Shown here: positions 16,431 to 56,145 of the stretch, in pieces | Numbering within the stretch: the stretch's first letter is position 1 | How the letters are laid out: every line of letters starts with the position of its first letter | NCBI GenBank assembly: GCA_020619395.1 | Contig: GCA_020619395.1_4860.1 | Origin: a phage | Strand: one strand, 5' to 3' | DNA: 64,000 nt | Program-made: the position numbers and the translations under genes | Notes under the pieces: generated by a model | The model's database searches: none | Told to the model about the DNA's origin: nothing | The model's input: only the letters and a program-made list of their open reading frames with translations

Positions 16431-16442
16431 GGAGATTTTTGA

Positions 16443-20573: not shown

Positions 20574-20574
20574 G

Positions 20575-20648
20575 ACGGACTGCCTACGGGCGGGTAGTCC
20601 GTAGGTAAACCGCCCTTCCGTTATTGGGAGGGCGGTCTCCGTTTTATT
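20575..20648 (+). terminator. tandem hairpins, terminator
   Basis: GC-rich hairpin 20575-20605 then accgccc/gggcggt hairpin 20609-20636 followed by T-run. Confidence 0.55.
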
Positions 20649-20668
20649 ACAGATTAGGAGTGTTTGCA

Positions 20669-27570: not shown

Positions 27571-27972
27571 ATGGCAATTGGATTAAAAGAACTGAATAAC
27601 CGATTAAACGCGATCGATGCAAACGCTTTAAAGAACACCACGAATGTGCAAAACTACATTCGCAATAAAGCTACGAATAACGCCGACTTGTTCGCAGGTC
27701 AAGGCCGTTCGCACTATGACTGTGGTGGCACATGCTCTTTTAGTTGCTCGAGTTGTTCTGGCGGGTGTACTGGGTCTGCTACGGGCGGTTGTGGGTCGAC
27801 TTGTTCCGCAAACTGTGTATCGGGCTGTAGCAGTAGCTGTACGGGCTGTAGCTCTTCGTGCTCGGGTGGTTGTAGCGGAACGTGTACTGGTAACTGTTCT
27901 GGGGGTTGTGGTAAATCCTGCTCCGCAAACTGCTCCGGCGCGTGTTCTGGTGGTTGTTCAGGTCCTAACTGA
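27571..27972 (+). CDS. Cys-rich repeat peptide 2 (133 aa), candidate RiPP precursor
   Basis: RBS aagggggat; leader similar to peptide 1; C-terminal ~30 aa nearly identical to peptide 1. Confidence 0.7.
   Translation: MAIGLKELNNRLNAIDANALKNTTNVQNYIRNKATNNADLFAGQGRSHYDCGGTCSFSCSSCSGGCTGSATGGCGSTCSANCVSGCSSSCTGCSSSCSGGCSGTCTGNCSGGCGKSCSANCSGACSGGCSGPN
27718..27969. repeat. low-complexity (C-x-x-x)n codon repeat in peptide 2
   Basis: same periodic Cys codon pattern. Confidence 0.8.
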
Positions 27973-39557: not shown

Positions 39558-39593
39558 AAAAAAAGAAAATAGGCCCTTCAGGGCCTATTTTTA
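39558..39593. terminator. bidirectional rho-independent terminator
   Basis: stem aggccc-ttca-gggcct flanked by A-run and T-run. Confidence 0.7.
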
Positions 39594-40627: not shown

Positions 40628-40630
40628 GTT

Positions 40631-41629
40631 TTACTCCACTAACTCGATAACGAATGCGTACAAACCGACCTTCTCAGCACTGTCAATTAACGTAACTTGG
40701 GAGAGGTTACGTTTCGACGTATTGGTTATGCTTGAATCGATAGGCGCAGACCCGCGAACCAGAACTAATCCCGATTCAGGATCACGTTCTTGGCACAAGA
40801 AACCTTTGCCTTGGTAAGCGCTACCGCTCCCATAAATGGACGCTGGACTAATATTAGTCCAGTTAGGGAGCATTTGTTTGTTAGGGATACAATCTCCGAA
40901 CGGATAAACAAAATCGTTATATTCGCAGCGACCATATTCCAAGTCATCATGGTCTGCGTTTCGCAACGATTCATCCAATGTCATTACTGTCGGTTCGTCC
41001 CCGTCGGTTAAACCGCGCAGCAATCGCATCCGATAGGTGTCGCCTTGCCATTCAAACAACCCACTCTGGTCAACACCTGCCAAATCCCCACGTCCGTTAT
41101 CAGGACCAAATCCATCAACACCGTACACAAGCCCCGCGTTATAAATGTCATTCCACGAGTAAAGTGTAGAGTTAAATCGTCCGCCGCTGTTCATCATGTA
41201 GTAAACTTTACCATGTCGATAAAACTTGTTCATGATTAGCGTGCCCGTGCCCGATATCCCTGTTAATGCACGAAAGCCTGCAGGCAACGCGTCATAGGTC
41301 ATCTGTTCTTCGAACGGCAACTGCCCCAGAAACGCCAAGTCGTCAGTATCGGAATAGTTAATCTGGTCGACGCCACCCACACCACGACGGTTTTTAATGA
41401 CAATGGATTTTTGTGGACTACCTACGGTACGGCCGTTAACAGTTACTGTTAAAAGATACCAGTAACGGGTGTTAAGAATAACGGTTTCGTCCGTCCATTC
41501 CGTTTCGCCATTACTTAAAGTTGCAATAGGGGCTGGTAATGCGGCTGTATTTATTTTAGCCGTGCCCCGATAAATGTTAACAATTGAACCTGCCGGATTT
41601 TCATTTTTCCAGCGTAGTGTGAATGCCAT
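40631..41629 (-). CDS. family-C paralogue 1 (332 aa)
   Basis: MAFTLRWKN..VNIYRGT N-terminus; paralogous to 43996..44985 and 47441..48439. Confidence 0.65.
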   Translation of the reverse strand: MAFTLRWKNENPAGSIVNIYRGTAKINTAALPAPIATLSNGETEWTDETVILNTRYWYLLTVTVNGRTVGSPQKSIVIKNRRGVGGVDQINYSDTDDLAFLGQLPFEEQMTYDALPAGFRALTGISGTGTLIMNKFYRHGKVYYMMNSGGRFNSTLYSWNDIYNAGLVYGVDGFGPDNGRGDLAGVDQSGLFEWQGDTYRMRLLRGLTDGDEPTVMTLDESLRNADHDDLEYGRCEYNDFVYPFGDCIPNKQMLPNWTNISPASIYGSGSAYQGKGFLCQERDPESGLVLVRGSAPIDSSITNTSKRNLSQVTLIDSAEKVGLYAFVIELVE

Positions 41630-41639
41630 CTGTTACTCC

Positions 41640-43082
41640 TTAGAAGCCGTTCAACTCACCGTTCGCGGTTGCTAAATCTGTTTTAAGTGGAGGTTCTGCC
41701 TGAGTAGGCGGTAGTGGACGCGGTGCGTCGACGTGTGGTTCAAGTACAACCATCGGCCTAACTGTACCTACGCTGTTCGACACTGTCGATAACGGCAGCG
41801 CAGTATCGACGTTTGGTTCACCCACCACAATCGGGCTGATAGGTTCTTCCACCTGTTCCGCAGTTGTTGCTAGAGGTCTCGGCGCATCTGTTGTCGCAAC
41901 CTCGACTGCAAGAGGGCGAATGCTATCAGGTTGTGGTGATGGTACATTAGGAATAACCCTAACGCGCCACACAACATCCCCTTCCACATCAGCTAAAGAT
42001 AAGACGATGTCGTCCTTATTGATTTCCTCTAAAACAGGCCACCAGTAAGTGGTATCTGTAAGGGTTACCCATTCAACTGAGCCACCGCGCATATTGCAAC
42101 GTTGTACTTTAACAGGGTTACCCCCGGTTAACAGTTGTTGCGTGAAGAAGACGGTGGTTCTGGTTAACGTGGTGTCATTTGCCCAGTCGCCGCCCGTAGA
42201 ACCGTCACCGAGTTGTGAAATAAGCCACAACGGTGTGGCCTTTGATAAATCAGGGCTAACCGGAACGGAGACGCGGTAATAATGCGTCTTGTTATTCTCA
42301 GTTTTCGTGACAATCAAAGCCTGGTCAACAGGTTCGATACCGTCTGGATACGGACCAGTGTCACCTGTACCGAAAATGGCACCCGCTTGATAAAGGGCCG
42401 TCCAGGTTGCTGTTAACGTTCCGGTAGTCGGTAGATAAACAATCTTACCATCCTTGAAAAATTTCAACCATTCGAAAGTCATTTTCGTTGGGGCAACATC
42501 AGGACGAATTAGGTTGTTTAGTTCAGCAAAGGTAAATAACTCTTGCTGAGAAACGTGGCCGAAGTATCCGTTTGTGCTGTCCCCTGCCAACAAATATTTA
42601 TTGCCTGGCCCAGAATCTGGATAGTAGCCCACGGCTTCATTCAAATAATCGACCGGGATATAGCCGCGATAGCATACGCTATTATACGCGGTTAAATTAA
42701 TACGTGTTGGCGTTGCCAGCGATTTGATAGGCGCGTCTACCGACTGTACACTGCTATCAGATAACCAAACACCGTATAAATCGCGTAGAGCTGGGAGAAG
42801 ATCCCGCACGGTCTTGGCCGTTTGTGGTACGTAGACGCGCGGAGCTATTTTAAATAGATCTGATAATGTTAAACGGTCGTAATAAACCGTGCACTCCCCA
42901 GAGAAACCTTTACCGGGTTTACCTACCAACGTAATTACCGTGTTACGACCATTCTTAGTGGTCTCGGCAGGAATACCCCTCACCCCAATCGAATCAGCGC
43001 TGATTCTTCCTGCGAGTTCAGGGTTATCCCTTACGACTTGTTGGCAGAGCAATTCCAGTTCGGGTGCGCTATACAATCCCAT
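41640..43082 (-). CDS. family-A paralogue 1 (480 aa)
   Basis: N-domain (RDNP..RNT..VYYDRLTL), SGPG..GYFG..ELF domain, C-terminal NGELNGF; RBS aggag. Confidence 0.65.
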   Translation of the reverse strand: MGLYSAPELELLCQQVVRDNPELAGRISADSIGVRGIPAETTKNGRNTVITLVGKPGKGFSGECTVYYDRLTLSDLFKIAPRVYVPQTAKTVRDLLPALRDLYGVWLSDSSVQSVDAPIKSLATPTRINLTAYNSVCYRGYIPVDYLNEAVGYYPDSGPGNKYLLAGDSTNGYFGHVSQQELFTFAELNNLIRPDVAPTKMTFEWLKFFKDGKIVYLPTTGTLTATWTALYQAGAIFGTGDTGPYPDGIEPVDQALIVTKTENNKTHYYRVSVPVSPDLSKATPLWLISQLGDGSTGGDWANDTTLTRTTVFFTQQLLTGGNPVKVQRCNMRGGSVEWVTLTDTTYWWPVLEEINKDDIVLSLADVEGDVVWRVRVIPNVPSPQPDSIRPLAVEVATTDAPRPLATTAEQVEEPISPIVVGEPNVDTALPLSTVSNSVGTVRPMVVLEPHVDAPRPLPPTQAEPPLKTDLATANGELNGF

Positions 43083-43093
43083 GAAGTCTCCTG

Positions 43094-43993
43094 TTAAGGC
43101 AGAACGAGTTCAAGTACCGCAATGGAGCGTATTGTAGTGGTACCGTAGTTACTCCATGCCGGCGACTCAGGGTAAGGTGGACGGTTGTACCACTGACTGG
43201 ACGTGTTATTCATAGCCGCAAAGAATGCAGATTGTTGGGCAGTAACCGAATCGATTGAACCGACCGGAAGGTCGTCAAAGCGCGGAAACTGCCCACTGTA
43301 GTTGTACAGGCGCGCGAAGGTGTTAAACCACTCACCGTCGAGATACAACTCAGTGTTACCGCTTCCAACGTAAGACGTCCAGTATTTGTAGTCGAACAAA
43401 TACGGCAAGCGCACCACGTATTCGTAACCGTTCTTCGCCACCGTGCGGCGTTGGTTACGTGCAGTAGCCCAGCCCGGTACATATCCATTGCCATCCTGGC
43501 CGTACATCATCCCCTGGTTATAAATGAACTGCGGGCTAGCGTTTATTATCGAGTTATCGGACATAAACAGAATACGGTTTTTGTAAATGAATTTATGCCA
43601 GGCACCAACGGCGGAACTGAACATATTCACCACGAGGCCGTTCAGTTCCGTGTTAGTGAATAACTCTGCTGGCGTTACTGTTCCAAAGTATCCAGCGTGC
43701 CAGTCGCCGTATAACAGTTTCTGGGGGCCAGGCCCGGTGTCTAAAAAGAACCCTTGGGCGGTAGGGGTGTTGAAGACACGCTCACCGTCTTTAACCGCAG
43801 CTATCCAATAACGGTAAGTGGTGTTGTTTTCCACAGCGTTGTCTTCGTACGATGTAGCGTCACCCGGAAGGGTTGCCAGAGGCGTTCCCGGTGCATTAAC
43901 ATCAATTGTGGCGTTGCCCGGCGTCTTGCGATAGATTTCGATGTTATCGAGCGCCTGTGGCTTCCGTTGTGCAAAGTGTAATGTAATAGGCAT
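43094..43993 (-). CDS. family-B paralogue 2 (~300 aa)
   Basis: ORF runs to 44029; ATG at 43993 (MPITLHFAQ..) has RBS gagga and abuts upstream stop. Confidence 0.65.
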   Translation of the reverse strand: MPITLHFAQRKPQALDNIEIYRKTPGNATIDVNAPGTPLATLPGDATSYEDNAVENNTTYRYWIAAVKDGERVFNTPTAQGFFLDTGPGPQKLLYGDWHAGYFGTVTPAELFTNTELNGLVVNMFSSAVGAWHKFIYKNRILFMSDNSIINASPQFIYNQGMMYGQDGNGYVPGWATARNQRRTVAKNGYEYVVRLPYLFDYKYWTSYVGSGNTELYLDGEWFNTFARLYNYSGQFPRFDDLPVGSIDSVTAQQSAFFAAMNNTSSQWYNRPPYPESPAWSNYGTTTIRSIAVLELVLP

Positions 43994-43995
43994 GA

Positions 43996-44985
43996 TTAAT
44001 CCTCGATAAGCTCGATTACTGGAATCCAAATACCGCCCACGGTCGCACCAGGGACATGTTGTATACGCTGGAGGTTATCCACGGTATCAGTGGAATCCGC
44101 CGCCGCCAATCCGCGCGTCAGCCCCAACTTACGTTCTGGGTCAAACTCCTGACAATGCGCCCCACGGCCTGCCACCAGCGATCCATTTCCGAATATGCTG
44201 GAGTTCGACCACTTTATCAGGGACATCACTTTTTTCTTTTCTGGGAACCAGCTACTTATCCCATAGATGAGTCGGTTGTATTCGCTATCGGCAGTATACG
44301 GTGACGCGTCATGGAGTTTACCGTCCCACTGTGCATCGAGTGTCATGACCGGGCTTTCACTGTCGAGTGTTAAACCGCGCAGCAGGCGCATCCGATAGCG
44401 GTCACCCAACCACGTAAACTCCCCAGCCTGGTCAACGTCAGGTAAATCGCCATGACCGCCTTCCGGACCAGGTCCCGCCACACCGTACAGCAAACCCGCG
44501 TTATAAATCGCATCACGGCTATACAGCGTGTTGCCGTTCACACGAAGACCACTAAACAGATACAGAATTTTACCGTCTAGCTGGAACTTCATCAAGCCCG
44601 GCTTAACAGTTGGGTCGTATCCAGAAAGGGCCACAAACCCTGGCGGATAATCACCCGCGCTAGGTAATTCACCGTACGCCACGTACCCGTAATACGCAAA
44701 GCGGTCATCACCGTACTGTGGAGCCACGATGCCGATACCGCGACGGTTCTGAATTAGAATTGATTTCTGCGGACTGAACAGTGTCCGACTTCCCACTGTC
44801 ACGGTGGTCATGTAGTAATACGTTGTCCCCAGTATCGCTGTTCGGTCAGTATACTCAGTTTCCCCGTTAGTGAACGTTGCCAGGGGTTCAGGTAATGCCG
44901 TACGCACCAGAGGTTTGGTGTCGCGGTACAGCTTCACGGTCGAAGCCCCAGGGTTATTGTTCGTCCAACGAATTGTAAAAGCCAT
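43996..44985 (-). CDS. family-C paralogue 2 (329 aa)
   Basis: MAFTIRWTN..VKLYRDT; AGPGPEGGHGDLP motif. Confidence 0.65.
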   Translation of the reverse strand: MAFTIRWTNNNPGASTVKLYRDTKPLVRTALPEPLATFTNGETEYTDRTAILGTTYYYMTTVTVGSRTLFSPQKSILIQNRRGIGIVAPQYGDDRFAYYGYVAYGELPSAGDYPPGFVALSGYDPTVKPGLMKFQLDGKILYLFSGLRVNGNTLYSRDAIYNAGLLYGVAGPGPEGGHGDLPDVDQAGEFTWLGDRYRMRLLRGLTLDSESPVMTLDAQWDGKLHDASPYTADSEYNRLIYGISSWFPEKKKVMSLIKWSNSSIFGNGSLVAGRGAHCQEFDPERKLGLTRGLAAADSTDTVDNLQRIQHVPGATVGGIWIPVIELIED

Positions 44986-44997
44986 TGTCGTTACCTC

Positions 44998-46494
44998 TTA
45001 TTGGAATCCATCCAACTCACCGTTAGTATCGCCCAGAGTAATTTTTGAAGGTTGGGCGATTTGGTCAGTCGTGAGAATAATCGGTCTAATCTTAACGCTA
45101 GCCATGCCTGTTACCGCGACGGAATATGCACGTTCATCATTGTCCGTCGTGGCAAGCAGAGGACGTGGTGAGTCTGATGACGCTTCCCGCAGCCAGGCAG
45201 GGGTGGCAGTTTCGGTGTTGTCGGTGTTGAAAACTAACGGACGTGGATTCGCTGCGGCGGAGGTTTCCGTAATAGGCACCACACGAAGCGATTCATTTTG
45301 GTCGATGTCCGTCAGAGTAACCACGGACGGTGCCCATGTTAGCTCTGCACCTTCGTCAATCAACGGCACAGGTTCATTGGCAACATCAAACATCTCCAGG
45401 ATTGGCCAAAAGCCAGAAGAGGTGTAGATGTAGGTGTTTGAACGATAGCTCGCGCTGATAGACTGGTAATACGCTTGGTCGGCACCGAACTGGTGTCGTA
45501 ACCACACGTAATCCAGGAAGTTAGCATCAGTCGTGCTAAGAGTTCCCCACTCCCCATATACGTTCACCGACCCCAATTTGCTGGTCAGTGACAGGATAGA
45601 GGTGATTGACGGCGGTTTACTCCAATCAGGCGCGGCGGCGTTCTCGGTGTAATACGGGATAGACATTCTGAAATAATGCGTTCCTTCATCATCCCGTTTT
45701 ACCATGTATTTCAACTGTTCAACATCGACAGGTGTGTAAGTCGACTTCGGGCGAGGTCCTGCGTCTCCGGAATCAAATATTGCACCCTTGTTGTACAGGT
45801 CTGCCCAGGTAACGTTGCAAATCGCACGGGTCGGAACAAACACTACCGCCCCATTCAGAAAGAATTTGAGCCACTTGATAGCGTAGCGGTTAGGCCAGTT
45901 GGTGCCGTTATAAAGGGCATACACCATTTCATCAGATGTGAATAACTCTTCCGCGCTTACCAGCCCAAAGAATCCGTATAACTCATTACCAGCCATTAAT
46001 CCTTTTGGCCCAGGACCCGACTTCGGATACATCGCAATCGGTTCGTAAACATAGGTCATCTTGCATGACCCGGTATAGCACAAGGAGTTAGCGTGCGCCG
46101 TCAGAGTTACAGTTTCCGGCGTAGCGTATTTCATTAATGCAACGTTTGGACTGGTGATATCACTCGCGGTTAAGTTCAACCCGTTCAATTCATTGAACGC
46201 CGGTAACGCTTCCGCATGGGTTTGTGCGCTACGTGGAATACTCACCATATTCGGGCCAGACTTAAATAGACTGGCCAGATTCAACCGGTCGTAATATACC
46301 GTTATTTCCCCAGCAAATCCTTTACCGGGTTTTCCTACCAACGTAATCTGAGTGTTTCGTCCGTTAACGTTTTTCGCAACAGGAACACCCCTGACCCCAA
46401 TGGAGTCAGGGGTGATTTTTCCTGCTAAACCGGGATTGTCACGCACAATTTGTTGGCAGAGCAGTTCCATTGAAGGTTCTGTATACAACCCCAT
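44998..46494 (-). CDS. family-A paralogue 2 (498 aa)
   Basis: MGLYTEPSMELLCQQIVRDNP..; C-terminal TNGELDGFQ. Confidence 0.65.
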   Translation of the reverse strand: MGLYTEPSMELLCQQIVRDNPGLAGKITPDSIGVRGVPVAKNVNGRNTQITLVGKPGKGFAGEITVYYDRLNLASLFKSGPNMVSIPRSAQTHAEALPAFNELNGLNLTASDITSPNVALMKYATPETVTLTAHANSLCYTGSCKMTYVYEPIAMYPKSGPGPKGLMAGNELYGFFGLVSAEELFTSDEMVYALYNGTNWPNRYAIKWLKFFLNGAVVFVPTRAICNVTWADLYNKGAIFDSGDAGPRPKSTYTPVDVEQLKYMVKRDDEGTHYFRMSIPYYTENAAAPDWSKPPSITSILSLTSKLGSVNVYGEWGTLSTTDANFLDYVWLRHQFGADQAYYQSISASYRSNTYIYTSSGFWPILEMFDVANEPVPLIDEGAELTWAPSVVTLTDIDQNESLRVVPITETSAAANPRPLVFNTDNTETATPAWLREASSDSPRPLLATTDNDERAYSVAVTGMASVKIRPIILTTDQIAQPSKITLGDTNGELDGFQ

Positions 46495-46507
46495 GGTATT
46501 TACTCCA

Positions 46508-47431
46508 TTACGGTAAGACTAATTCAAAAGCAAAGAATATCGTGGCCGAGTTCCCGACACCTGCGGTGTTACTAATCCCCATAGGCACGGTGCCATACGC
46601 ATAAGCGAATATGTTGTTGCTCCACAAAGGAGCTAATACAGCGGCACCTGACTCATTCGGCTGCGCAGTCGCGCCTTGTCTTTCAAGTGAGTCAATCGCA
46701 CCAAGACCGAGGGCTGCGTACTGTGCACCGACAGGATACAAACGGCCCATTGTGTTTCGCCATTCACCGTTGTTGTAATCCTGTCCTGAGAGTGCCGCGT
46801 CGTACGGGACTGCGTAAGGTAATCGGATACGGTACGTACGACCATCCTTCGTGACCTTACAATCTTGTTTAGTCGCCGTGGCTCCCTGCGGAACAATACT
46901 TCCGACATCATCGGTCCCGTACATCATGCCGTACTGATACGCCATTTGTACCGAGTTGCTTTTCGAATGCATCGTCGCTGGGAAGAAGACAATTCGCCCA
47001 CGGAAAATAAACTTGTGCCATTCCTGAGGGTCGTAAGTAAACATGTTTCCCTGCTGCGCGGTTAACATGAGTTTTAACTCGGCAGTATTAAAGAACTCGG
47101 TATTAGATACCGTACCGAAATAGCCTGACGCCCAATCGCCACGCAAAATAGTTTGTGGCCCCGGTCCAGTGTCCGGATAGAACCCTTGCGTAATCGGATT
47201 GCCGATAAGTCGTTCACTATCTTTCACAGCAGCTACCCAGTAACGATAAGTTGTATTCTTCGTCAGGGTATCGATATTATCTACGAACTCTACCGCGCTA
47301 CCGGATAAGGTGGCGTGGGGTGTACCTGGGTTGTAAACGTCGATTGTTGCGTTCCATCCTTCCTTGCGGTAGATTTCAATCGCGGTAAGACCTTTGCTGG
47401 CTTGGGACGGCCAGCTTAACCGTATAGTCAT
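46508..47431 (-). CDS. family-B paralogue 3 (307 aa)
   Basis: MTIRLSWP..IEIYRK..DTGPGPQT..GDWASGYFG. Confidence 0.65.
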   Translation of the reverse strand: MTIRLSWPSQASKGLTAIEIYRKEGWNATIDVYNPGTPHATLSGSAVEFVDNIDTLTKNTTYRYWVAAVKDSERLIGNPITQGFYPDTGPGPQTILRGDWASGYFGTVSNTEFFNTAELKLMLTAQQGNMFTYDPQEWHKFIFRGRIVFFPATMHSKSNSVQMAYQYGMMYGTDDVGSIVPQGATATKQDCKVTKDGRTYRIRLPYAVPYDAALSGQDYNNGEWRNTMGRLYPVGAQYAALGLGAIDSLERQGATAQPNESGAAVLAPLWSNNIFAYAYGTVPMGISNTAGVGNSATIFFAFELVLP

Positions 47432-47440
47432 GACTGCCCC

Positions 47441-48439
47441 TTACTCGACCAGTTCAAAGATAGGGTAGTAGCGCCCTTTCGTGGTGGGTGATAAATAGTT
47501 TATACGCTGAATCGTGGATACGGGTGTTCCACCGGCATTGTTAAAAATACCACGATGGAGCACACGGTCTTCCGCGGTATCGTGTTCCATACAGAGAACA
47601 CCACCGCCGAAATACTGTGCCAAGGTTCCCAAAGTACCTTGCCCCAGATAAGTATAACCGATTGTTGCCCAGTTAGCCCAACGCTGTTTCTTCGGCACCT
47701 CGTTAACCATCGTGTAAAGTAAATCGTTATACTCACACGGGTTGGTTAGAGAAGCGATTTCATCATGGGTTTTCCCATTATAGTCAGCTACGAAAGGATA
47801 CGCAGGAGGCTCGCTAGACATCGTCAGGCCGCGAGGAAGACGCATGATGTACGTATCCCCTTTGTGGACTATCTTAGCGTCTTGTGGAGTGGCCGGTAGC
47901 GTTCCATGGCCGTTCTCTGGACCAGCATCGCCCGTACCATAGACTAAACCAGCTTGATAGAGGGAAGCCCAGTCCACAGGCGTATTCGGGAACTGCGACG
48001 TGCTAGATAGCATGTAATAGATCTTCCCGTTTCGGGTAAATTTATACAACGCCACACGATCGGTTAGTAGGTTAGGGAACATCGCCAAAAATGCAGGTGG
48101 CATTTGCGACGGAAGCCACTGTTCGTCGTAAGGAACCGCACCCATAAACCCTAAACGGTCGTCACCGTTTAGAATAGTCATTGGACCGATCCCACGCTTT
48201 ATCTCAATGGTGTATTTCTGGCTAGACGATGCCACTGTTTTACCGTTGGCGGTTACCGTCAGAAGGTAATAATAGGTTGCGCCTGGTGTGGCGGTGGTAT
48301 CACGCCATTCTGTCTCGCCATTTGAGAGCGTTGCAATCGGTTCAGGCAAAGCGCTTGGTGTGATATCTTTAACATCACGGTAGATTTTTACTACCGTAGG
48401 GATTACGTTTGGATTTTTCCAACGCAAAGTAAAAGACAT
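47441..48439 (-). CDS. family-C paralogue 3 (332 aa)
   Basis: MSFTLRWKN..VKIYRDV. Confidence 0.65.
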   Translation of the reverse strand: MSFTLRWKNPNVIPTVVKIYRDVKDITPSALPEPIATLSNGETEWRDTTATPGATYYYLLTVTANGKTVASSSQKYTIEIKRGIGPMTILNGDDRLGFMGAVPYDEQWLPSQMPPAFLAMFPNLLTDRVALYKFTRNGKIYYMLSSTSQFPNTPVDWASLYQAGLVYGTGDAGPENGHGTLPATPQDAKIVHKGDTYIMRLPRGLTMSSEPPAYPFVADYNGKTHDEIASLTNPCEYNDLLYTMVNEVPKKQRWANWATIGYTYLGQGTLGTLAQYFGGGVLCMEHDTAEDRVLHRGIFNNAGGTPVSTIQRINYLSPTTKGRYYPIFELVE

Positions 48440-48450
48440 AGATGATACCT

Positions 48451-49863
48451 CTACTTAAAGCCGTCCAGTTCACCGTTAAGAGACGTTAACGTTGTCTTGT
48501 CAGGGGGCGTATACATTTCAGCGGTAGCCGCAATAGGTTGGAAGTCGACTGTCTTCGGCAGCATTAAAGCAGGCGGATGCAGTGCGAAACTGTTTTCTGA
48601 AGTAACAACTACCGGTTCGAAATCGGTAGTATCCGGATTACCGAGCACTAACGGCTTGAGACTAAATGTGTTTTCTGCGGACACGCTGCACGGTTGGAGA
48701 CTGTAATCTGCCGTACCGTGGATATCTTCTAAACCCAAGGTAACTGTGGACTTATCCACCAACTCCAGCACCGGGAACCAGTAGTAGTTGCCCGCACTCG
48801 ATGATTTTTCTAAGTTTGTCCAACTTGCTCCAGACAACGTCGCCATGCGATGATTGGCGACGTTGGTCTTCAGTGTATCTTTCAATAAACAGAACAGCGT
48901 CCAGTAACTGTTAATCGGTTTGTCCCACGTTCCATTATACAGAAAGTTGAACATCTCAAACTCACTACCTGCTAACTCAGCGGCAGTTGGGGTGCCGCTG
49001 ACGTATGGGTCTTTCCCGGCACTAGGTAGACGAACGCGGAAGTAAAACCTTTTGTTGTCTGCGCCTGTAAAGCTAATGATGCGTCCCTGGTTAACGGGCG
49101 TCGCCGCAGGGTATTTACCATTATCGTCTGTTCCGTAAACGAGTCCGTTTGTATATAACGTATTCCAGGAGATGGAGCTAGCGACAGGACTGATCGGAAG
49201 GTAAATAACCCTACCCTGGTAAAAGAACTTGTACCAACCTTCGGCACCAGAATGTACCGGTGGTAACGCACCGGCCGATATAGTGGCATTAAGAAGTTGA
49301 GAGTGTGTAAACAACTCTGCAGTTCTGGTTGTTCCGAAATAACCCGCGATAGTGTTACCTTGCAGCAACGTTTTAGGGCCAGGTCCAGAATCGGGGTAAA
49401 TTGCACCACTCGGGACGGTATAACGTATCGTTAAGCTGCCTGTAAACGCAGGGCAATTGCCTGAGATATTTAATTTCAACGTCTGCGGCGAAACGCTCGG
49501 TTTAGGTAAACTTGCGTCAGGTGACTGCAAATCAGAAGCAACTAATGTAAGCCCCAATGCGTCGTTTATTGCAGGTAGCGCGTCTCGTACCGTTAAGACT
49601 GTATCTTTGATAGCCACAGTCGGCACAAAATTAAATAAAGTGGCCAGGTTAATCCGGTCGTAGTACACGGTAACATTACCTTGTACACCTGTCCCTGGAT
49701 ACCCGGTGAAAACAGCTTTGGTGTTACGTTGGTTTAACGTAACTGAAGTTGGGCCACTGGTTAAAGCAGCGATAGCCGGCGTCAGCTTAACAACTAAATC
49801 AGGGTTATCCCGATTGACTTGGTCGTATACAAGCAGTGCCGACTCCTTCGAGTAAAATAGCAT
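48451..49863 (-). CDS. family-A paralogue 3 (470 aa)
   Basis: MLFYSKESALLVYDQVNRDNP..; C-terminal LNGELDGFK. Confidence 0.65.
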   Translation of the reverse strand: MLFYSKESALLVYDQVNRDNPDLVVKLTPAIAALTSGPTSVTLNQRNTKAVFTGYPGTGVQGNVTVYYDRINLATLFNFVPTVAIKDTVLTVRDALPAINDALGLTLVASDLQSPDASLPKPSVSPQTLKLNISGNCPAFTGSLTIRYTVPSGAIYPDSGPGPKTLLQGNTIAGYFGTTRTAELFTHSQLLNATISAGALPPVHSGAEGWYKFFYQGRVIYLPISPVASSISWNTLYTNGLVYGTDDNGKYPAATPVNQGRIISFTGADNKRFYFRVRLPSAGKDPYVSGTPTAAELAGSEFEMFNFLYNGTWDKPINSYWTLFCLLKDTLKTNVANHRMATLSGASWTNLEKSSSAGNYYWFPVLELVDKSTVTLGLEDIHGTADYSLQPCSVSAENTFSLKPLVLGNPDTTDFEPVVVTSENSFALHPPALMLPKTVDFQPIAATAEMYTPPDKTTLTSLNGELDGFK

Positions 49864-49880
49864 AGGGACTCCGCATCGCC

Positions 49881-49907
49881 AAAAGAGGGGGGCTCCGAAG
49901 AGCCCCT
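49881..49907 (-). terminator. hairpin, weak terminator
   Basis: stem ggggctc-cgaa-gagcccc; only a short T-run on minus strand. Confidence 0.4.
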
Positions 49908-49911
49908 ACAC

Positions 49912-50742
49912 TTAGCTGTTATAGTGGTAGTACGCCACGCCTTTCACGCCTTCCTCATCGATACCCGTTTGGATAACCACGCGGTCGTACGATTTGTTAG
50001 CGAACTGAGCGGTGGATGTCGGCACATCCTGAACGGTGTTACTGTTCAGTGGCCCCGCGTAGTTCGGAATACCCAGGTCATCCAACACCTTACGCAAACC
50101 AGCCCACTGCGGTAGGCCAGAAGCATCTACTGTCAGTAGGTTTTTATACGCGGTAAAGTCAATACCGTACGTCAACAAATCAATACACTTCTTACCGAGA
50201 GACGGTGAAATAGGCTCTTGAATCGCATTCAAGACATCTGATTTCACCGAAGTGTCTAGTACCGGTAAACCACGGTTATAACGCAACGTCGCAGAACCGA
50301 TATAAGCCGGAGATGTCGATAGCGCTGCAATGGTCTGTGTATTGGTGTAATTTGGGGTATTGGCACCAAACAGTGAGTAGTTTTGGATATCGATTGCGGA
50401 GAAGTTTACTCCGTAAGTATCCAAGAGCACCGAAAAGGCTGAGTGGAGGTTGGGCGCGTCAAACGTGACGAACTGCGCCTGGACAGAAGGACCCCACGGC
50501 AATAACCGCGCTAAGTTCACACGGTCGTAGTAAACGGTGATTGCGTCTCGAAATCCGGAACCCTGAATACCGCGCAAGCGTGCCGACGTATTGCGGTTGT
50601 TGGAAGCTGCATTAACGGGAACCTGCGTCACTTTCTCCACGTAGCAGTTTGCCGGCGACGCTTTAATAGGTAGGTTTGGGTTATCCCGGTTAATGAGGTC
50701 AAAGACCAACTCGTTTGACGGCTTAGCATAGTTGATCATCAA
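49912..50742 (-). CDS. family-D paralogue 1 (276 aa)
   Basis: N-domain MMINYAKPSNELVFDLINRDNP..VYYDRVNL; C-terminal YYHYNS. Confidence 0.65.
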   Translation of the reverse strand: MMINYAKPSNELVFDLINRDNPNLPIKASPANCYVEKVTQVPVNAASNNRNTSARLRGIQGSGFRDAITVYYDRVNLARLLPWGPSVQAQFVTFDAPNLHSAFSVLLDTYGVNFSAIDIQNYSLFGANTPNYTNTQTIAALSTSPAYIGSATLRYNRGLPVLDTSVKSDVLNAIQEPISPSLGKKCIDLLTYGIDFTAYKNLLTVDASGLPQWAGLRKVLDDLGIPNYAGPLNSNTVQDVPTSTAQFANKSYDRVVIQTGIDEEGVKGVAYYHYNS

Positions 50743-51630
50743 TTATACCTCGCTTGGATCGTCCAGATCGTTGAACTGGAGATACAACGTTCCGACGATG
50801 GTGGTACAGGTAACAGGCAGTTTCAACACCAGCGCATACTTGTACTTCGCGTTTGTCGGCATTGCAACAGGGTCATTCAGACCAACGCTGATAACCTCCG
50901 CGCCCGCCAAACCGTAGGAAGCGGAGGTGGTCGCTACCCATGCAGTACCCGTGATATCTTTCAGCAGGTTAACCATATCCGTTAACGGCTGTCCGGACAG
51001 AATACCCGGCACGTATGCCAGCAACTCATCACGGTATTTGGTGAAGTTGTACGGGTAGGAATAAACCTCTGCAATGACCGCAGTAACGGTTTCGGAACCC
51101 ATCTGACCGTTCGGGTATTTCAGACCGGTCAGGACGTTAGTGGTGACCGCAGAGACTAACGACTCATCGCCTTTCACGACTTTAAATGTCGCCTGTCCAA
51201 CCCAACCGATAGACTCAGGATGTGCAACAACACGCACAGTTCCTTCGGTCTTATCACCGTTCCATTCGATATCTGCGTCCTGCAGGTCAGCTTCTTCCAG
51301 AACAAAACCGTAACGTTGGTTCAGTCCAGGAATGGCCGCATACAAGGTTTCGTTGGATGGGCCGATCGCCAACGTGTCACCAATCAGCACTAACAAGTCT
51401 TCGATTTTCATGCGGTTGTAGAAGACATTTTTCTTACCCGACCAGGTAGAGCCCGTTACCCCATCTGCCGTAATTTTAATTTGCGTGTTACGGTTAGTCA
51501 GCGTTTCCTTCTCCGTACCACGGATGTCCTTTGGCGAGGACCAGATGATGTCAGTCATCTTAACAGCAAGCGAGTTCTGTGCGTTCACTGCTGCCAACAG
51601 GACGTCTTTAGAAGGTTGATAAATAGCCAT
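50743..51630 (-). CDS. family-D paralogue 2 (295 aa)
   Basis: N-domain; C-terminal LYLQFND. Confidence 0.65.
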   Translation of the reverse strand: MAIYQPSKDVLLAAVNAQNSLAVKMTDIIWSSPKDIRGTEKETLTNRNTQIKITADGVTGSTWSGKKNVFYNRMKIEDLLVLIGDTLAIGPSNETLYAAIPGLNQRYGFVLEEADLQDADIEWNGDKTEGTVRVVAHPESIGWVGQATFKVVKGDESLVSAVTTNVLTGLKYPNGQMGSETVTAVIAEVYSYPYNFTKYRDELLAYVPGILSGQPLTDMVNLLKDITGTAWVATTSASYGLAGAEVISVGLNDPVAMPTNAKYKYALVLKLPVTCTTIVGTLYLQFNDLDDPSEV

Positions 51631-51640
51631 TCGCTAATTC

Positions 51641-52480
51641 CTAGTTGTTGTAGTGCAACATACACTCGCCGATTACTTTCGGGTCGTTCTGAATGCCGGT
51701 AATCAGCAATACGTTATCGTACGCTTTATTGGCGGTCGCCAACTCACTCGTTTTGTAGCGGGTAATTGTGCAGTTCGTCGGATCAAACGACGGTACCCCA
51801 CGTGCGACCAATGTGGCCATCAGATTGGACGTGTAACCCAAATCAAAGTTACTTCCTACGTCCATTCGCCCGTTCTTAAACGAGGCCATAACCTGCACTT
51901 CATCAGTAAAGTCTTCCCCGTACGTCAAGAAGCCCATGTATTTCTTACCAGTGCTTGCTGCTGCAGGGTGGTTCAAAGCCGACAAGATGTCGTTTACCAC
52001 GAGGTCTTCGAGACTATTCTTACCCCGGATAGACATAAAGGTGATGCTGCCAGTGTATTGGATACAGCTAGCGTTAATGCGCATCGTGTTGTTTACGTTC
52101 AGATAAACGTATTGTTCTGGGATATCGTCTGCAACCAGGTTTAATCCATAACGACCGTTCAGGTTCTGCGCAAACGCAGTACGTTTCGACTCCACGTTCA
52201 ACCAACCGTAGGCATTCGGTGCAGTTACCTGAGGTGTCATGTTCTTAAATAAGTCGTTCAGCGACAAGCGCTTATAACGGAACGTCTGAGGACCGATATA
52301 GCCACGACCTTGACGACCACGAATGATAATCTCAGTATTGGCACCGCTTGCTGTCGGTGTGATTGCTTTCGGCGTACCGATGATAGCATTGTCTAAACCC
52401 ATCGGTAGAACAGCATCCGGGTTTTCGGCATTAATCGCATCGTACAGATATTGTCGCTGAGACAGACTATATAAAGCCAT
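51641..52480 (-). CDS. family-D paralogue 3 (~279 aa)
   Basis: ATG at 52480 (MALYSLSQ..) with RBS gaggagg; C-terminal MLHYNN. Confidence 0.65.
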   Translation of the reverse strand: MALYSLSQRQYLYDAINAENPDAVLPMGLDNAIIGTPKAITPTASGANTEIIIRGRQGRGYIGPQTFRYKRLSLNDLFKNMTPQVTAPNAYGWLNVESKRTAFAQNLNGRYGLNLVADDIPEQYVYLNVNNTMRINASCIQYTGSITFMSIRGKNSLEDLVVNDILSALNHPAAASTGKKYMGFLTYGEDFTDEVQVMASFKNGRMDVGSNFDLGYTSNLMATLVARGVPSFDPTNCTITRYKTSELATANKAYDNVLLITGIQNDPKVIGECMLHYNN

Positions 52481-52516
52481 AATAGCCTCCTCGGCCAAAA
52501 AAGAAAGGAGTAGCCA

Positions 52517-52537
52517 GGAGGAGGATTTCCTCCTCCC
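52517..52537 (-). terminator. hairpin ggaggagga-ttt-tcctcctcc, terminator or attenuator
   Basis: 9 bp stem inside the array; T-run follows 12 nt later on minus strand. Confidence 0.4.
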
Positions 52538-52549
52538 AGCGAGGCCTAA

Positions 52550-53461
52550 TTAGGCATTAAAGTGCAGGTACATGACGCCCTGGAAGTTGGTGCACAGAGT
52601 GTCATCCAGCTGCAGCAGCAGAACCTGGTTGTAAGCAGTGTTTGCACCTTCAACCGGTTTCTTAGGATCGTCGCCTGAAGCAGTGCCATCGTCAGTAGTA
52701 GAACCAACGTACAACACGTTAGCACCTTTCAGGTTATAATCCGCAGGCTCATCAGATGCAACCCACAGTTCCGGCACAACTTTATTCAGCTCAACCGGGA
52801 ATGCAGAGTCGCCAGCGATAACACCTTTCGCCTGTACTTTCAGGAATGCTGCGATTGCTGTGCAGTCTACACCGTAAGAGTAGATGTAGCCCTGACCCTT
52901 CGCTTCGCTTGGACCATCTGGGTAAACCAGGCCGTCGAGCTTGGTTTGTGTTACCACCAGACTCAGACGTTCACCAACCTGAGGCTTAGCACCGATTTTA
53001 ACCGGGATGCTGCCCAGATATGCGTAGCAGTCTTCTTTGAAGGTAATGACATGGTCAACCGGTGCTGGGTCCGGATCGTTCGGGTTAGTCAGCGGCGGGT
53101 TGGTATTTTCCGGAATAGCCGCCGGAACGATATCGTCTTCGGTCAGCTTCAATCCATATTGGTTGTTCAGGGTCGTCAGCAGGTCTGTGGTGGTTTTCGG
53201 CAGTTTAACGTCGAGGTATGCTGTTACGTTACGGAACAGCGCACCGCCTTCCAGGCGATTATAAGTCACGTCCTGAGTACCGATGTACCCGGAGTTCTTT
53301 TTCGCAGTCAGGGTCATGCTGGTATTGCGATCGGCACCTCCATCGATAATAGGGGTCGGTGTGCCGAGCGTTATTTTAGAAAGTTCCAGTTCTGCGTCTG
53401 GGTTTTTCTCATTAATAAAATCCAGAACCAGCTGATCGGACGTTTTGTTTAAAGGTTTCAT
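52550..53461 (-). CDS. family-D paralogue 4 (303 aa)
   Basis: N-domain; C-terminal MYLHFNA. Confidence 0.65.
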   Translation of the reverse strand: MKPLNKTSDQLVLDFINEKNPDAELELSKITLGTPTPIIDGGADRNTSMTLTAKKNSGYIGTQDVTYNRLEGGALFRNVTAYLDVKLPKTTTDLLTTLNNQYGLKLTEDDIVPAAIPENTNPPLTNPNDPDPAPVDHVITFKEDCYAYLGSIPVKIGAKPQVGERLSLVVTQTKLDGLVYPDGPSEAKGQGYIYSYGVDCTAIAAFLKVQAKGVIAGDSAFPVELNKVVPELWVASDEPADYNLKGANVLYVGSTTDDGTASGDDPKKPVEGANTAYNQVLLLQLDDTLCTNFQGVMYLHFNA

Positions 53462-53482
53462 TCTTACTTCCTTTACTCAGGA

Positions 53483-54328
53483 TTAATCAGGGTCGTTGTA
53501 GTGCAAATACAAACGCCCGCCAAAATTCAGACAGTACAACGACAGCTCCACAATCAGCACGTTGTCGACTGCTGGGTTGGTTGGTAATTCCGCTTTGTTA
53601 CGCCCGTTATAGACGACGACGGCTTCACGAAGGTTAAAGTCGATTGGGTTACGGTACGTTGTCCAGTTATCACCGGTGACCGTTTTGAGAATCTGTGCCA
53701 GACGTTCTGCGGTTATCGCAGCACCTAGTCGTTGAAATTCCTCCGCGAAATTATCAAAGCGCCAGGGATACGAATAAACTGCACCTTGACCGACCTTGAT
53801 GTTAAAATACGGATACTCGTAAGGTGTTACTGTTAAGGGTTCGAAGTTTGCAGGAAGCAACGCATCGCCTGGTAACAGCTGTACCTGTTGTTGCCCTATC
53901 CAACCTAAAGAAGTGGGCGTGGCAATCAGATCCACACGCCATGTCTTCCTGTCGATTTCGGTATTCACCACATCTGCAGGTTTAAGGCTGAGACCGTAAT
54001 ACTGGTTAATTAACCCGACCACGTCATGCATCTGGTAAACGGCATCGAGACGTGCAGGAACACGTAGAGGTTGAATCCCGTCTGGGTCGGTAAACATGTC
54101 TGCGAAGTCAACACGATCGTAATACACGGTAGTGGCACCGATAGCATTAGCGGTGGCCAATGCCTGAATGCGCACCATCGCGTTATGACCATTGGCTTTT
54201 GCCAGGTCTTCGTCAGACGTCGGAATCGCAGGGACACCGAAAACCACATCTTCGACTTTTAAATCGAGATTGTTTTCGACGTTAACCTCCGCGATAATAA
54301 TCTTTTCAGCAGTGGCTAAAAGTGGCAT
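53483..54328 (-). CDS. family-D paralogue 5 (281 aa)
   Basis: N-domain; C-terminal LYLHYNDPD. Confidence 0.65.
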   Translation of the reverse strand: MPLLATAEKIIIAEVNVENNLDLKVEDVVFGVPAIPTSDEDLAKANGHNAMVRIQALATANAIGATTVYYDRVDFADMFTDPDGIQPLRVPARLDAVYQMHDVVGLINQYYGLSLKPADVVNTEIDRKTWRVDLIATPTSLGWIGQQQVQLLPGDALLPANFEPLTVTPYEYPYFNIKVGQGAVYSYPWRFDNFAEEFQRLGAAITAERLAQILKTVTGDNWTTYRNPIDFNLREAVVVYNGRNKAELPTNPAVDNVLIVELSLYCLNFGGRLYLHYNDPD

Positions 54329-54338
54329 GTCAAAATCC

Positions 54339-55181
54339 TTATATCGGGAGATAGTGAAGGATGAGATTACCGGCGTAGTTGCTGTCCGCAGCTAGCTTGA
54401 TAATCGCCACACGCTGATAATCGGGGTTGTAACTATCGTTCGGTGTGACTGAAGTTATCCCCATAAATCGCGCACCTTGGAGTGCAATTTGTTCAGGTTG
54501 CGCAGTCGCCCCCGTCACATATGCAAACTTTAATGGCACCACTTCGTTCAGCAATTCAACATCCGCCGCGGTGATTGCGCGGTTGTAAGCCCAATCGGTA
54601 GTGAACTGTTTTTGCAGTTCAGTCCAATCGTAACCATACGCCACATACTCAGCCTGTGGTTTACTAGCAACCACGAACGGCGCGATAATTGCGCTGAGGT
54701 CAACATCCGTCACCACATCCGCCAAGTTCGGGAAGAACTTCGCAAAGCGTAAACGGAAACCACCTTGCCAGGCCAAGCAACCAGGCTTAATAGTCACATC
54801 GATTAACCAGCTTTCTCCCAAATCTTTTACTGACTGGTCAACGATATCGTCGGCAACTAAAGACAAGCCGTATTTCGCATTCAGAAACGGCAACAACTCA
54901 GAGAGTTTATTTACCGGGTCGGCAACGACTACCGGTATTACGTTCCTGAACAGAATTTCCATTTCGATACGGTCGTATTCGAGCGTAACGTTGCCTTTGT
55001 AGCCCTTGCCGTTCAACCCGTATAAGAGCACACGCGTATTCCGGTCAGCGCCAGGCGTTTGGACAGACTCAGGGAAGCCAGTTGCAACCTGCTCCCATGT
55101 GAGTGGATTGGCCGTTAATCCGTTCTGTCGGTTAATAGCATCTAACAACATCTCTTTCGAGGGCTTATCGTAAATAGACAC
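54339..55181 (-). CDS. family-D paralogue 6 (280 aa)
   Basis: GTG start with RBS aggaggg; C-terminal LILHYLPI. Confidence 0.6.
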   Translation of the reverse strand: MSIYDKPSKEMLLDAINRQNGLTANPLTWEQVATGFPESVQTPGADRNTRVLLYGLNGKGYKGNVTLEYDRIEMEILFRNVIPVVVADPVNKLSELLPFLNAKYGLSLVADDIVDQSVKDLGESWLIDVTIKPGCLAWQGGFRLRFAKFFPNLADVVTDVDLSAIIAPFVVASKPQAEYVAYGYDWTELQKQFTTDWAYNRAITAADVELLNEVVPLKFAYVTGATAQPEQIALQGARFMGITSVTPNDSYNPDYQRVAIIKLAADSNYAGNLILHYLPI

Positions 55182-55191
55182 CTATACCCTC

Positions 55192-55989
55192 CTAGTTGTT
55201 AAAGTGTAGGTTGAGGCTGCCCTGGAAGTTCGTACATTTATCGGTCAGTTGCACTGACACGACTTTCGCGAACGCCGTATTTGCTCCCGGCAAGTCTGCA
55301 GGTACGCCGTCGAATACGACAGTGGCACCACGCAGGTTATACGGGGATGGGGTATCTTCAGCTACCCAAATCTCAGGAACACATTTGTTGAGTTCGATTG
55401 CCAACGCCGTGTCATCTACCTCGATACCGACCGCTAAGAGGCTCAGGAAACGAGAGATGTGGCTACAATCGATGTCACGCGAATAGATATACGCCTGACC
55501 CAACTGGATGTCCTGGTGATCCGGGTACAGAAGACCGCTCAACTCTGTATTGGTTACTACTTCTGCCAGAGGTGTAGCAGGTTTCAGCTCGATGACCGCT
55601 TGACTTCGCCACTCGTGGGAAGTTTCAACAGCAACGACTGTGTGCGTCTGTCCATCAATGGGGTTATCTTCGATATCCTCAGGTAAGATAGACAGATTAA
55701 AACGCTCGTTAATCGCCGCGAGTAAGTCGTGCGTGGTTTGCACGTCCTCGTCTCCAAAGGCAACATCGCCTTTAAGGTAGTCCTCTAATGGACGACGATG
55801 GTAGTCCACAATCACTTGCGTACCTTCATCACCGCGCATCTTCGAGGTAAGGACTACCTCCGAATCACGACCGTCTACTGACACAACCTCCGGCAGTCCG
55901 ATATCAACATCGTCAAAGGTAAGCGGTGGGCTTATCTTATTCTCTTCGTTGATGAGTTTTAGCAGATTCTGTTTTGAAGTAAAAGACAT
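55192..55989 (-). CDS. family-D paralogue 7 (265 aa)
   Basis: first gene of the array; C-terminal LNLHFNN; weak RBS. Confidence 0.6.
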   Translation of the reverse strand: MSFTSKQNLLKLINEENKISPPLTFDDVDIGLPEVVSVDGRDSEVVLTSKMRGDEGTQVIVDYHRRPLEDYLKGDVAFGDEDVQTTHDLLAAINERFNLSILPEDIEDNPIDGQTHTVVAVETSHEWRSQAVIELKPATPLAEVVTNTELSGLLYPDHQDIQLGQAYIYSRDIDCSHISRFLSLLAVGIEVDDTALAIELNKCVPEIWVAEDTPSPYNLRGATVVFDGVPADLPGANTAFAKVVSVQLTDKCTNFQGSLNLHFNN

Positions 55990-56087
55990 CGCGTTAACTC
56001 GAGTTAAGGGATTATTGAGGTCGTAAGATTTTTAGACCCCCTGCCAGCATATTAAAAGCGTAGTGCGTACCAGAATCTGAACAAGAG

Positions 56088-56140
56088 CAAACAAAAAAAA
56101 AGAAAAGGAAACAAAAAAAGAAGGGGAGCCGAAGCTCCCT
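56088..56140 (-). terminator. rho-independent terminator with long T-rich tail
   Basis: stem gggagc-cgaa-gctccc 7 nt after stop of 56146..56577; ~35 nt T-rich tract on minus strand. Confidence 0.75.
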
Positions 56141-56145
56141 TTTCT

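Follow-up and report, generated by a model that had tools for sequence, protein, structure and literature searches.

The stretch of phage DNA analyzed here (hereafter, the window) comprises 64,000 nucleotides (nt) of contig GCA_020619395.1_4860.1 in GenBank assembly GCA_020619395.1, and the genes under study are seven consecutive open reading frames (ORFs) of 265 to 303 amino acids (aa) within positions 49912 to 55989. A first-pass annotation made from the sequence alone had singled them out as one tandem set of paralogs; as a correction to that description, all seven are on the minus strand. They are orthologs of gp138 to gp144 of Salmonella phage SPN3US and are numbered here g01 to g07.

55192 to 55989, minus strand: g01, ortholog of gp138, full-length DUF7941 protein of 265 aa (Pfam E value, 7.5e-68)
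54339 to 55181, minus strand: g02, ortholog of gp139, full-length DUF7941 protein of 280 aa with a GTG start (Pfam E value, 6.6e-71)
53483 to 54328, minus strand: g03, ortholog of gp140, full-length DUF7941 protein of 281 aa (Pfam E value, 1.5e-79)
52550 to 53461, minus strand: g04, ortholog of gp141, full-length DUF7941 protein of 303 aa (Pfam E value, 6.8e-85)
51641 to 52480, minus strand: g05, ortholog of gp142, full-length DUF7941 protein of 279 aa (Pfam E value, 3.2e-80)
50743 to 51630, minus strand: g06, ortholog of gp143, full-length DUF7941 protein of 295 aa (Pfam E value, 2.9e-82)
49912 to 50739, minus strand: g07, ortholog of gp144, full-length DUF7941 protein of 275 aa (Pfam E value, 4e-87)

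Over positions 49000 to 56500, the window is 99.2% identical to Salmonella SPFM phages and 98.8% identical to SPN3US along the full length; these close relatives are 240-kb jumbo phages of the genus Seoulvirus, family Chimalliviridae. The seven genes are collinear with ACQ60_gp128 to ACQ60_gp122 of SPN3US, all annotated as “virion structural protein,” with equal gene order and lengths and per-gene nucleotide identities of 97.5 to 99.6%. The original SPN3US numbering was fixed through the mutation table of PMC10052503, which puts record position 119591 in SPN3US_0142, so that g01 to g07 correspond to gp138 to gp144. They are the first seven genes of a 17-gene tandem array, gp138 to gp154, all members of which were found in the SPN3US virion (Thomas et al. 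2016, PMC5105663). Ali et al. 2017 (PMC5694885) named the array “paralog family B,” with 20 members and unknown function, and the published genome-wide count is 20 to 21 members (PMC5105663; PMC5694885; Scheuch et al. 2023, PMC10052503). The first-pass annotation treated the seven as a closed family and missed both the 17-gene array and the 21-member published family; their N-terminal domain (N-domain) is also present in at least six other window proteins. The seven-gene array itself is already known, given that the paralog array was published in 2016 and 2017, the family is in Pfam, and 2026 brought a structure of one member and a functional model. The papers on family B deal with the same genes and assign the proteins to the head, without a fold, a Pfam link, or a mechanism. 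The present analysis adds an explicit connection of family B to DUF7941, a linker motif that is conserved, the recognition of adhesin, lectin-like, and Fn3 domains in the array, and the exceptional member gp237.

For g05, the start given is the ATG at 52480 of the SPN3US annotation; the mechanically called ORF reaches 52498, and the Pfam match begins at its residue 7. The start of g07 (50739) also follows the SPN3US annotation, the mechanical ORF spanning 49912 to 50742. The GTG at 55181 is most likely the start of g02: an AGGAGG lies 6 nt upstream, EC001 and SPAsTU annotate the same start, and it is only from this position that the N terminus aligns with the paralogs in the multiple alignment. 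The SPN3US RefSeq record and several other annotations start g02 10 codons later and would be too short by that length. Intergenic spacers, put at 0 to 20 nt in the first-pass annotation, are actually 0 to 51 nt between mechanical ORFs and reach 69 nt with the annotated start of g05.

The description of the genes as tandem paralogs was borne out by their mutual similarity and their shared Pfam family. In all-against-all BLASTP comparisons, 17 of the 21 pairs matched with E values of 1e-7 to 1e-44 (1e-26 for g03 and g06), and the pairs g03-g05 and g03-g07 matched only at about 1e-2. Direct BLASTP matches were absent for g01-g05 and g01-g07, and all seven are connected through g02 and g04. The nearest relatives of g07 are g05 (1e-21) and the N-domain of g08 (1e-20), the next gene of the array. 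Each of the seven proteins gives an end-to-end match to Pfam PF25613 (DUF7941), with E values of 7.5e-68 to 4e-87 that exclude chance and scores of 229 to 293 bits over profile positions 1 to 276 (the gathering threshold is 27 bits). All seven also match PHROG 1037, “virion structural protein.” Their multiple alignment confirms significant similarity, with a mean column identity of 40% and nine invariant columns (N14, N17, Y63, R65, D105, L141, P156, N237, and G257 in g01 numbering). The shared motifs reported earlier are real, if less uniform than stated: RNT occurs in four of the seven proteins and LH(Y/F)N in five, the C-terminal deviants being g02, which ends in LHYLP, and g06, which ends in LQFN. 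Between g01 and g04, the linker and C-terminal domain (C-domain) are 52% identical and the N-domain only 24%, and the N-domain of g04 is nearest to that of g05. Because domain-wise identities disagree across domains in this way, the seven genes are mosaics.

Searching 1.84 billion representative proteins with a profile gave 3,471 family members, most of about 280 aa. In agreement with a restriction of DUF7941 to Chimalliviridae jumbo phages, the window belongs to a Seoulvirus, and a tblastn search with g04 matched 95 phage records, of which those among the 40 matches listed are 212 to 307 kb long. Some distant members of the family carry from 2 to about 9 N-domains in series within one polypeptide, which is the arrangement expected of a head-to-tail polymer.

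The AlphaFold2 model of the g04 product (gp141; 32-sequence alignment) has a mean predicted local distance difference test (pLDDT) score of 87.6 and a predicted template modeling (pTM) score of 0.53. It consists of an N-domain (residues 1 to 160) and a C-domain (residues 190 to 303), both with pLDDT above 85, joined by a linker (residues 161 to 189) with pLDDT of 56 to 68, and the pTM value indicates that the two predicted domains are flexibly arranged. This is the tripartite plan described for gp22 of phage Goslar, and not the one small fold that had been proposed for the seven proteins. In a Foldseek comparison of the model with the Protein Data Bank (PDB), the N-domain matched phiKZ gp127 (9xqd chain 0) with an E value of 5e-7 and a template modeling (TM) score of 0.66 over 150 modeled residues. 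Beyond phiKZ gp127, Foldseek gave no significant PDB match to g04, including no known decoration fold or immunoglobulin-like (Ig-like) pilin fold. A sequence profile of the seven proteins finds phiKZ gp127 at an E value of 6.6e-23.

The middle of the proteins, thought to be variable, turned out to be as conserved as the domains. Among the seven, the linker is 25 to 30 aa long and has 25% identity, versus 26% for the domains. In 120 aligned full-length representatives, taken from a library clustered at 50% identity, it holds 1.53 bits per column, versus 1.57 and 1.56 for the two domains. These representatives share the linker motif LxxxVTxxxLxGLxYP, with L at 78%, L at 83%, G at 68%, Y at 72%, and P at 92%. 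The truly variable part of the seven proteins is a loop of 7 to 21 aa inside the N-domain. A linker that is conserved and yet has no confident fold in the modeled monomer is what would be expected of a segment that becomes ordered upon binding a partner.

Such a partner is predicted in a recent preprint on phage Goslar (bioRxiv 10.64898/2026.04.21.720040), where, in AlphaFold 3 (AF3) predictions, each protomer uses its linker and C-domain to dock on the N-domain of the protomer that follows. In the same work, purified gp22 formed long filaments in negative stain, a gp126-gp127 dimer was fitted into unexplained density of the phiKZ baseplate, the virion was found to hold more than 2,500 DUF7941 copies, and a DUF7941 fiber cloud radiating from the baseplate was proposed for host recognition. 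The Goslar set (gp22, gp23, gp31, gp33, gp34, and others) belongs to the same Pfam family and has the same tripartite plan; like the present phage, it includes N-domain-only members and fusions of the N-domain to binding domains, in hundreds to thousands of copies. Goslar gp31, gp33, and gp34 match the seven genes with E values up to 1.7e-19 (1e-11 to 1e-19 for gp33 and gp34). The two phages differ in that identity is about 25 to 33%, and Goslar has 10 scattered members whereas the present family has 21, 17 of them in one array. The fused modules also differ, being carbohydrate-binding, glycoside hydrolase, and leucine-rich repeat (LRR) domains in Goslar and gp38-type, C-type-lectin-like, and Fn3 domains here. 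Filament formation has been shown for Goslar gp22 only, and the preprint makes no mention of SPN3US or of its head association data.

In phiKZ, each “star lobe” of the outer baseplate has a gp139-dimer band with gp127 at its end (Nat Commun 2026, PMC13250141). Its N-domain has the fold found in the seven proteins and is the only solved structure of the family (PDB 9XQD chain 0). This phage has 2 or 3 members, gp127 is modeled over residues 1 to 150 only, and its place on the outer baseplate contrasts with the copurification of the SPN3US proteins with tailless heads.

The products of six other window genes also contain the N-domain module, of about 150 aa: g08, g11, g14, g17, g18, and the ortholog of SPN3US gp160. 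The genes concerned are as follows.

39725 to 49863, minus strand: g08 to g16 (gp145 to gp153), a three-gene cassette present three times (E values between copies, 1e-53 to 1e-97)
38227 to 39546, minus strand: g17 (gp154), DUF7941 N-domain and linker region (residues 1 to 169; Pfam E value, 1.5e-26) with an unassigned C-terminal part
36035 to 38212, minus strand: g18 (gp155), two tandem N-domains followed by a gp38-type adhesin (DUF7941 E value, 5e-23; GP38 E value, 5.7e-18)
32616 to 33143, minus strand: ortholog of gp160, N-domain only, 175 aa, ending in ...TNGELDGFV (Pfam E value, 4e-11)

In each cassette, the product of one gene joins a DUF7941 N-domain to a C-type-lectin-like domain and ends in NGELDGF after a disordered tail of about 90 aa, and the other two genes encode an Fn3 domain (profile match to 3mpc, E value of 8e-4) and the same lectin-like domain. 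Since the latter is common to all three genes, their products could conceivably form a heteromeric tip that has one DUF7941 adaptor. The NGELDGF terminus is found after a disordered stretch in g08, g11, g14, and gp160; it resembles the core of the linker motif (T-E/K-L-D/S-G-L), and these proteins may donate a docking peptide. The N-domains of g18, a gene annotated as “hypothetical protein,” lie at residues 11 to 153 and 176 to 311, and its glycine-rich motifs align to gp38 of S16 (PDB 6f45_D) and to a T-even gp38 (9v85_A).

Pfam found no GP38 domain in g01 to g07, gp155 being the only one of the window genes named here to carry it, and neither Pfam nor Foldseek found a fiber tip or adhesin domain in any of the seven. 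The earlier suggestion of a fiber or adaptor role fared well in that these are virion proteins of a fiber-like system whose N-domain behaves like an assembly or adaptor module and, in adjacent genes, is fused to adhesin-type domains, and failed in the detail that the seven would be fiber tips.

BLAST pairs within the seven (g01/g04, g02/g05, and g03/g06) suggested duplication of a three-gene unit, which the domain-wise identities do not support. As judged from these comparisons, only the triplication of g08 to g16 is robust. The products of g17 and g18 share the C-terminal ending Y(S/T)K(T/S)AP.PW. Between the DUF7941 array and gp160 sit a gene called “tail assembly chaperone” in RefSeq, for which Pfam matches only DUF1353 (34409 to 35050, minus strand), and an adjoining endolysin with GH108 and PG_binding_3 domains (35339 to 35992, minus strand).

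The presence of the g01 to g07 products in the virion is assumed by carrying over the data for the 98.8%-identical SPN3US, where mass spectrometry detected gp138 to gp144 jointly in all particle preparations, in widely differing amounts (PMC10052503). The proposal of alternative or combinatorial use is therefore only partly right, the alternative use of single paralogs being at odds with their joint presence. Location can be read from the normalized head/wild-type (WT) ratios of Table S2 in PMC10052503, obtained with heads of a tail-tube amber mutant purified on two cesium chloride (CsCl) gradients. The ratio is 1.22 to 1.56 for gp138 to gp144, 0.89 to 1.67 for gp145 to gp155, gp160, and gp83 (0.89 for gp155), and 1.39 for the major capsid protein; it is at most 0.07 for the sheath, the tape measure, gp167 to gp171, and other tail, baseplate, and fiber proteins (PMC10052503). 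A second, independent tailless mutant of SPN3US led to the same head assignment. Very rough estimates from published peptide-spectrum matches (PSMs) give about 390 copies per virion of gp141 (g04), the most abundant of the seven, about 185 of gp143, and 35 to 85 of each of the other five. The same data give about 535 copies of gp160 and put the head-associated set, again roughly, at about 2,000 subunits with a mass of about 60 MDa, which is on a similar scale to the Goslar count.

Outside the window, SPN3US encodes one further member, gp237 (183 aa; L008:6365-6916, minus strand), whose gene adjoins that of the tape measure. It consists of a DUF7941 N-domain and a linker motif ending in ...VTELNGLVY, without a C-domain (Pfam E value, 1.1e-26). 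With a head/WT ratio of 0.06, it is a tail protein and the only member of family B that goes with the tail (PMC10052503). It may be the counterpart of the baseplate-bound phiKZ gp127 and is a candidate baseplate anchor.

Values for the ratio of nonsynonymous to synonymous substitution rates (dN/dS) were 0.05 to 0.43 for the seven genes against SPN3US and SPLA3 (0.07 for g01 against SPN3US), so that all seven are under purifying selection, with no sign of diversifying selection. Erwinia phages, with a nucleotide identity of about 74%, also keep the order of the seven genes. This conservation, together with purifying selection, argues that the genes have seven distinct maintained functions and are not redundant copies. 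Hot spots of microdiversity shared by several near-identical phages lie at residues 114 to 147 of g07, 178 to 227 of g06, and 162 to 228 of g02, and fall in the N-domain loop and in the region of the linker and early C-domain.

SPLA3 is about 99% identical to the window over g01 to g05 and 58 to 90% identical from the linker of g06 (about residue 178) through most of g07. It diverges again in g08, from about residue 105 as far as the comparison extends (residue 288; window positions 49000 to 51150). From the alignment, this appears to be a recombinant patch in an otherwise near-identical genome. Exchange of a unit made of the g06 C-domain and the g07 N-domain was considered and rejected, as the patch runs on through g07 and resumes in g08. 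Eleven SPFM records (LR535901, LR535903 to LR535908, LR535911 to LR535913, and LR535917) match in 40 short pieces, with 33% coverage at 99% identity, and contain many truncated “hypothetical proteins” (e.g., P0040 to P0050 and P0077 to P0081). These fragmentary records look like indel-rich assemblies and not like biology.

Taken together, gp138 to gp144 are probably chain-extending subunits of heteropolymeric DUF7941 filaments that carry the downstream adhesin-bearing relatives and serve in host capture. In this scheme, the linker motif and the C-domain of one protomer would dock on the N-domain of the next, and gp138 to gp144, present together in the virion, would build flexible heteropolymeric filaments. 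The downstream relatives would join these chains by their N-domains and supply the binding function in the form of a C-type-lectin-like domain or a gp38-type adhesin, the proteins with Fn3 and lectin-like domains being their partners from the cassettes. The outcome would be an adhesin-decorated fiber cloud that raises the capture of the host surface or flagellum. The proposal builds on established paralogy, family membership, domain architecture, and homology to phiKZ gp127, and on the adhesin fusions in the neighbors, the purifying selection, and the virion presence known from published proteomics, all of which are equally established. From these we infer the head-to-tail polymerization of gp138 to gp144, the heteropolymeric composition, and the role in host recognition.

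Assembly of this kind has a mechanistic analogy in chaperone-usher pili, in which each subunit has a segment that binds its successor or completes it, a single operon encodes several paralogous subunits, and adhesin subunits share the polymerization module. The likeness goes no further, as DUF7941 proteins are viral and have no Ig-like pilin fold, usher, or chaperone. A functional analogy is offered by the head fibers of phage 7-7-1, flexible fibers away from the baseplate that make the first contact, often with flagella. These fibers have no sequence or fold relationship to DUF7941, for which the head location is deduced from proteomics alone. Infection by SPN3US depends on the flagellum, free tails with baseplate and fibers were seen on flagella, and several other chimalliviruses are flagellotropic.

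Several observations weigh against the proposed adhesin-carrying filaments. Polymerization of gp138 to gp144 is argued from about 26% identity to the tested family and from indirect sequence signatures, and the similarity between NGELDGF and the linker is short and possibly coincidental. The Goslar filament model comes from a preprint in which the host recognition role is itself a proposal (bioRxiv 10.64898/2026.04.21.720040). No anchor of the type of Goslar gp32 or phiKZ gp139 is encoded in the 64-kb window. The recovery of gp138 to gp155, gp160, and gp83 with tailless heads runs counter to filaments anchored purely on the baseplate and fits an internal location, and the SPN3US authors labeled gp141, gp143, and gp160 “Head ejection?” (PMC5694885).

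Were all DUF7941 filaments to stand on the outer baseplate, the head signal in SPN3US would have to come from self-assembled filaments that stuck to the heads or became tangled with them and so copurified. The place of phiKZ gp127 at the tip of the gp139 band (PDB 9xqd), the self-assembly of Goslar gp22 in vitro, the tail association of gp237, itself a DUF7941 protein with a ratio of 0.06, and the SPN3US tails with baseplate and fibers observed on flagella all suit this arrangement. We consider it unlikely nonetheless, because about 20 members track the capsid protein (0.9 to 1.7) over two CsCl gradients and two independent tailless mutants, true baseplate proteins drop 15- to 200-fold in the same heads, and filaments made solely of protein would not be expected to band with DNA-filled heads unless they were bound to them. 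Packaging of the proteins inside the capsid with the DNA, followed by injection, as the original authors suspected when they chose the label “Head ejection?,” would suit their association with the heads of tailless particles and their high copy number (estimated at about 2,000 subunits and 60 MDa), and SPN3US heads do contain a large internal protein mass. The family bears modules of an extracellular type, however (gp38 adhesin, C-type-lectin-like, and Fn3), and its phiKZ homolog is external on the baseplate, which leaves packaging and injection with a rather low probability.

Association with the head could also mean that the proteins decorate or cement the capsid at distinct quasi-equivalent sites of its T=27 shell, where paralogs of differing abundance could fit different lattice positions. 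This seems improbable for proteins whose fold does not resemble that of known decoration proteins (Ig-like/Hoc, Soc, beta-tulip, and others) and whose sole structural relative is a baseplate protein. Moreover, the rough copy estimates of 35 to 390 show no obvious fit to simple icosahedral site counts, and disordered linkers and adhesin fusions are unexpected in cement proteins. A reading of the alternative use suggested in the first-pass annotation, that of mutually exclusive fiber tips or host range cassettes with one paralog per virion or host, draws on the resemblance of tandem divergent paralogs to such cassettes and on the microdiversity hot spots in g06, g07, and g02 among near-identical phages. 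It is highly improbable in view of the detection of all seven proteins together in every SPN3US preparation, the lack of any recognizable binding domain in them, dN/dS values of 0.05 to 0.43 with no diversifying selection, and the maintenance of the set as seven in Erwinia phages.

For filaments of gp138 to gp144, the SPN3US data point to an anchor on the head or neck and the phiKZ data to the outer baseplate. The peripheral-baseplate position that the fiber cloud model holds to be “universal” was not found for gp138 to gp144 in the published SPN3US proteomics. It is a tentative and somewhat doubtful suggestion that, in Seoulvirus, the bulk of DUF7941 (gp138 to gp144 and the adhesin-bearing gp145 to gp155) is placed on the head or neck, with gp237 alone giving contact with the baseplate. 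If so, flagella or the cell surface could be captured by a head-borne, adhesin-tipped net, which might be tethered to the baseplate as well, and anchoring on the head or neck would contradict a universal baseplate-anchoring model. The literature on SPN3US “family B head proteins” and that on the Goslar and phiKZ “baseplate fiber cloud” are unconnected and disagree on location. SPN3US is a system able to settle the matter because of its amber mutant genetics and clean head-only preparations. The array is the largest known expansion of DUF7941, and the function of this family is just coming to light. Nucleus-forming jumbo phages, themselves phage therapy candidates, owe much of their virion mass to DUF7941 proteins, which may determine the initial step in capturing the host.

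Terminator-like hairpins were found at three places along the array.

56124 to 56139, minus strand: hairpin upstream of g01, GGGAGCTTCGGCTCCC followed by a T-run
49889 to 49906, minus strand: hairpin 5 nt past the g07 stop, GGGGCTCTTCGGAGCCCC followed by a T-run
39566 to 39591, minus strand: hairpin after g16

The hairpin scan detected none in the internal spacers of g01 to g07, and with hairpins on both flanks, these genes plausibly form one transcription unit. By the same signals, the order of units would plausibly be g01 to g07, then g08 to g16, and then g17 and g18. A sigma-70 promoter scan gave 14 sites versus 21.3 in shuffled controls, that is, fewer than in the control, and is irrelevant here because transcription in the phages concerned relies on phage-encoded RNA polymerases. 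Inside the 5′ part of g11 (46386 to 46414, minus strand) is a perfect hairpin of 13 bp, 9 of them G-C pairs, without a T-run.

Elsewhere in the window, positions 11387 to 25852 hold three large plus-strand genes (1237, 1376, and 1742 aa) corresponding to SPN3US gp170, gp169, and gp168, the “paralog family C” of phiKZ gp131-like baseplate or fiber proteins. Also located there is gp171 (420 aa; 11387 to 12649, minus strand), which matches Goslar gp30 at an E value of 2e-21 and is a listed homolog of phiKZ ORF130. Two tandem plus-strand genes (27168 to 27560 and 27571 to 27972) encode proteins of about 130 aa that share their N-terminal halves and are Cys/Gly/Ser-rich at the C terminus (CSGGCSG... 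repeats). One ORF later come two radical S-adenosylmethionine (radical-SAM) enzymes (29087 to 30037 and 30030 to 31358, plus strand; Pfam Radical_SAM E value of 1e-15 each), the 442-aa one being SPN3US gp163, a nonvirion protein by mass spectrometry. From their sequences, the two pairs look like a substrate-plus-maturase arrangement within the structural region.

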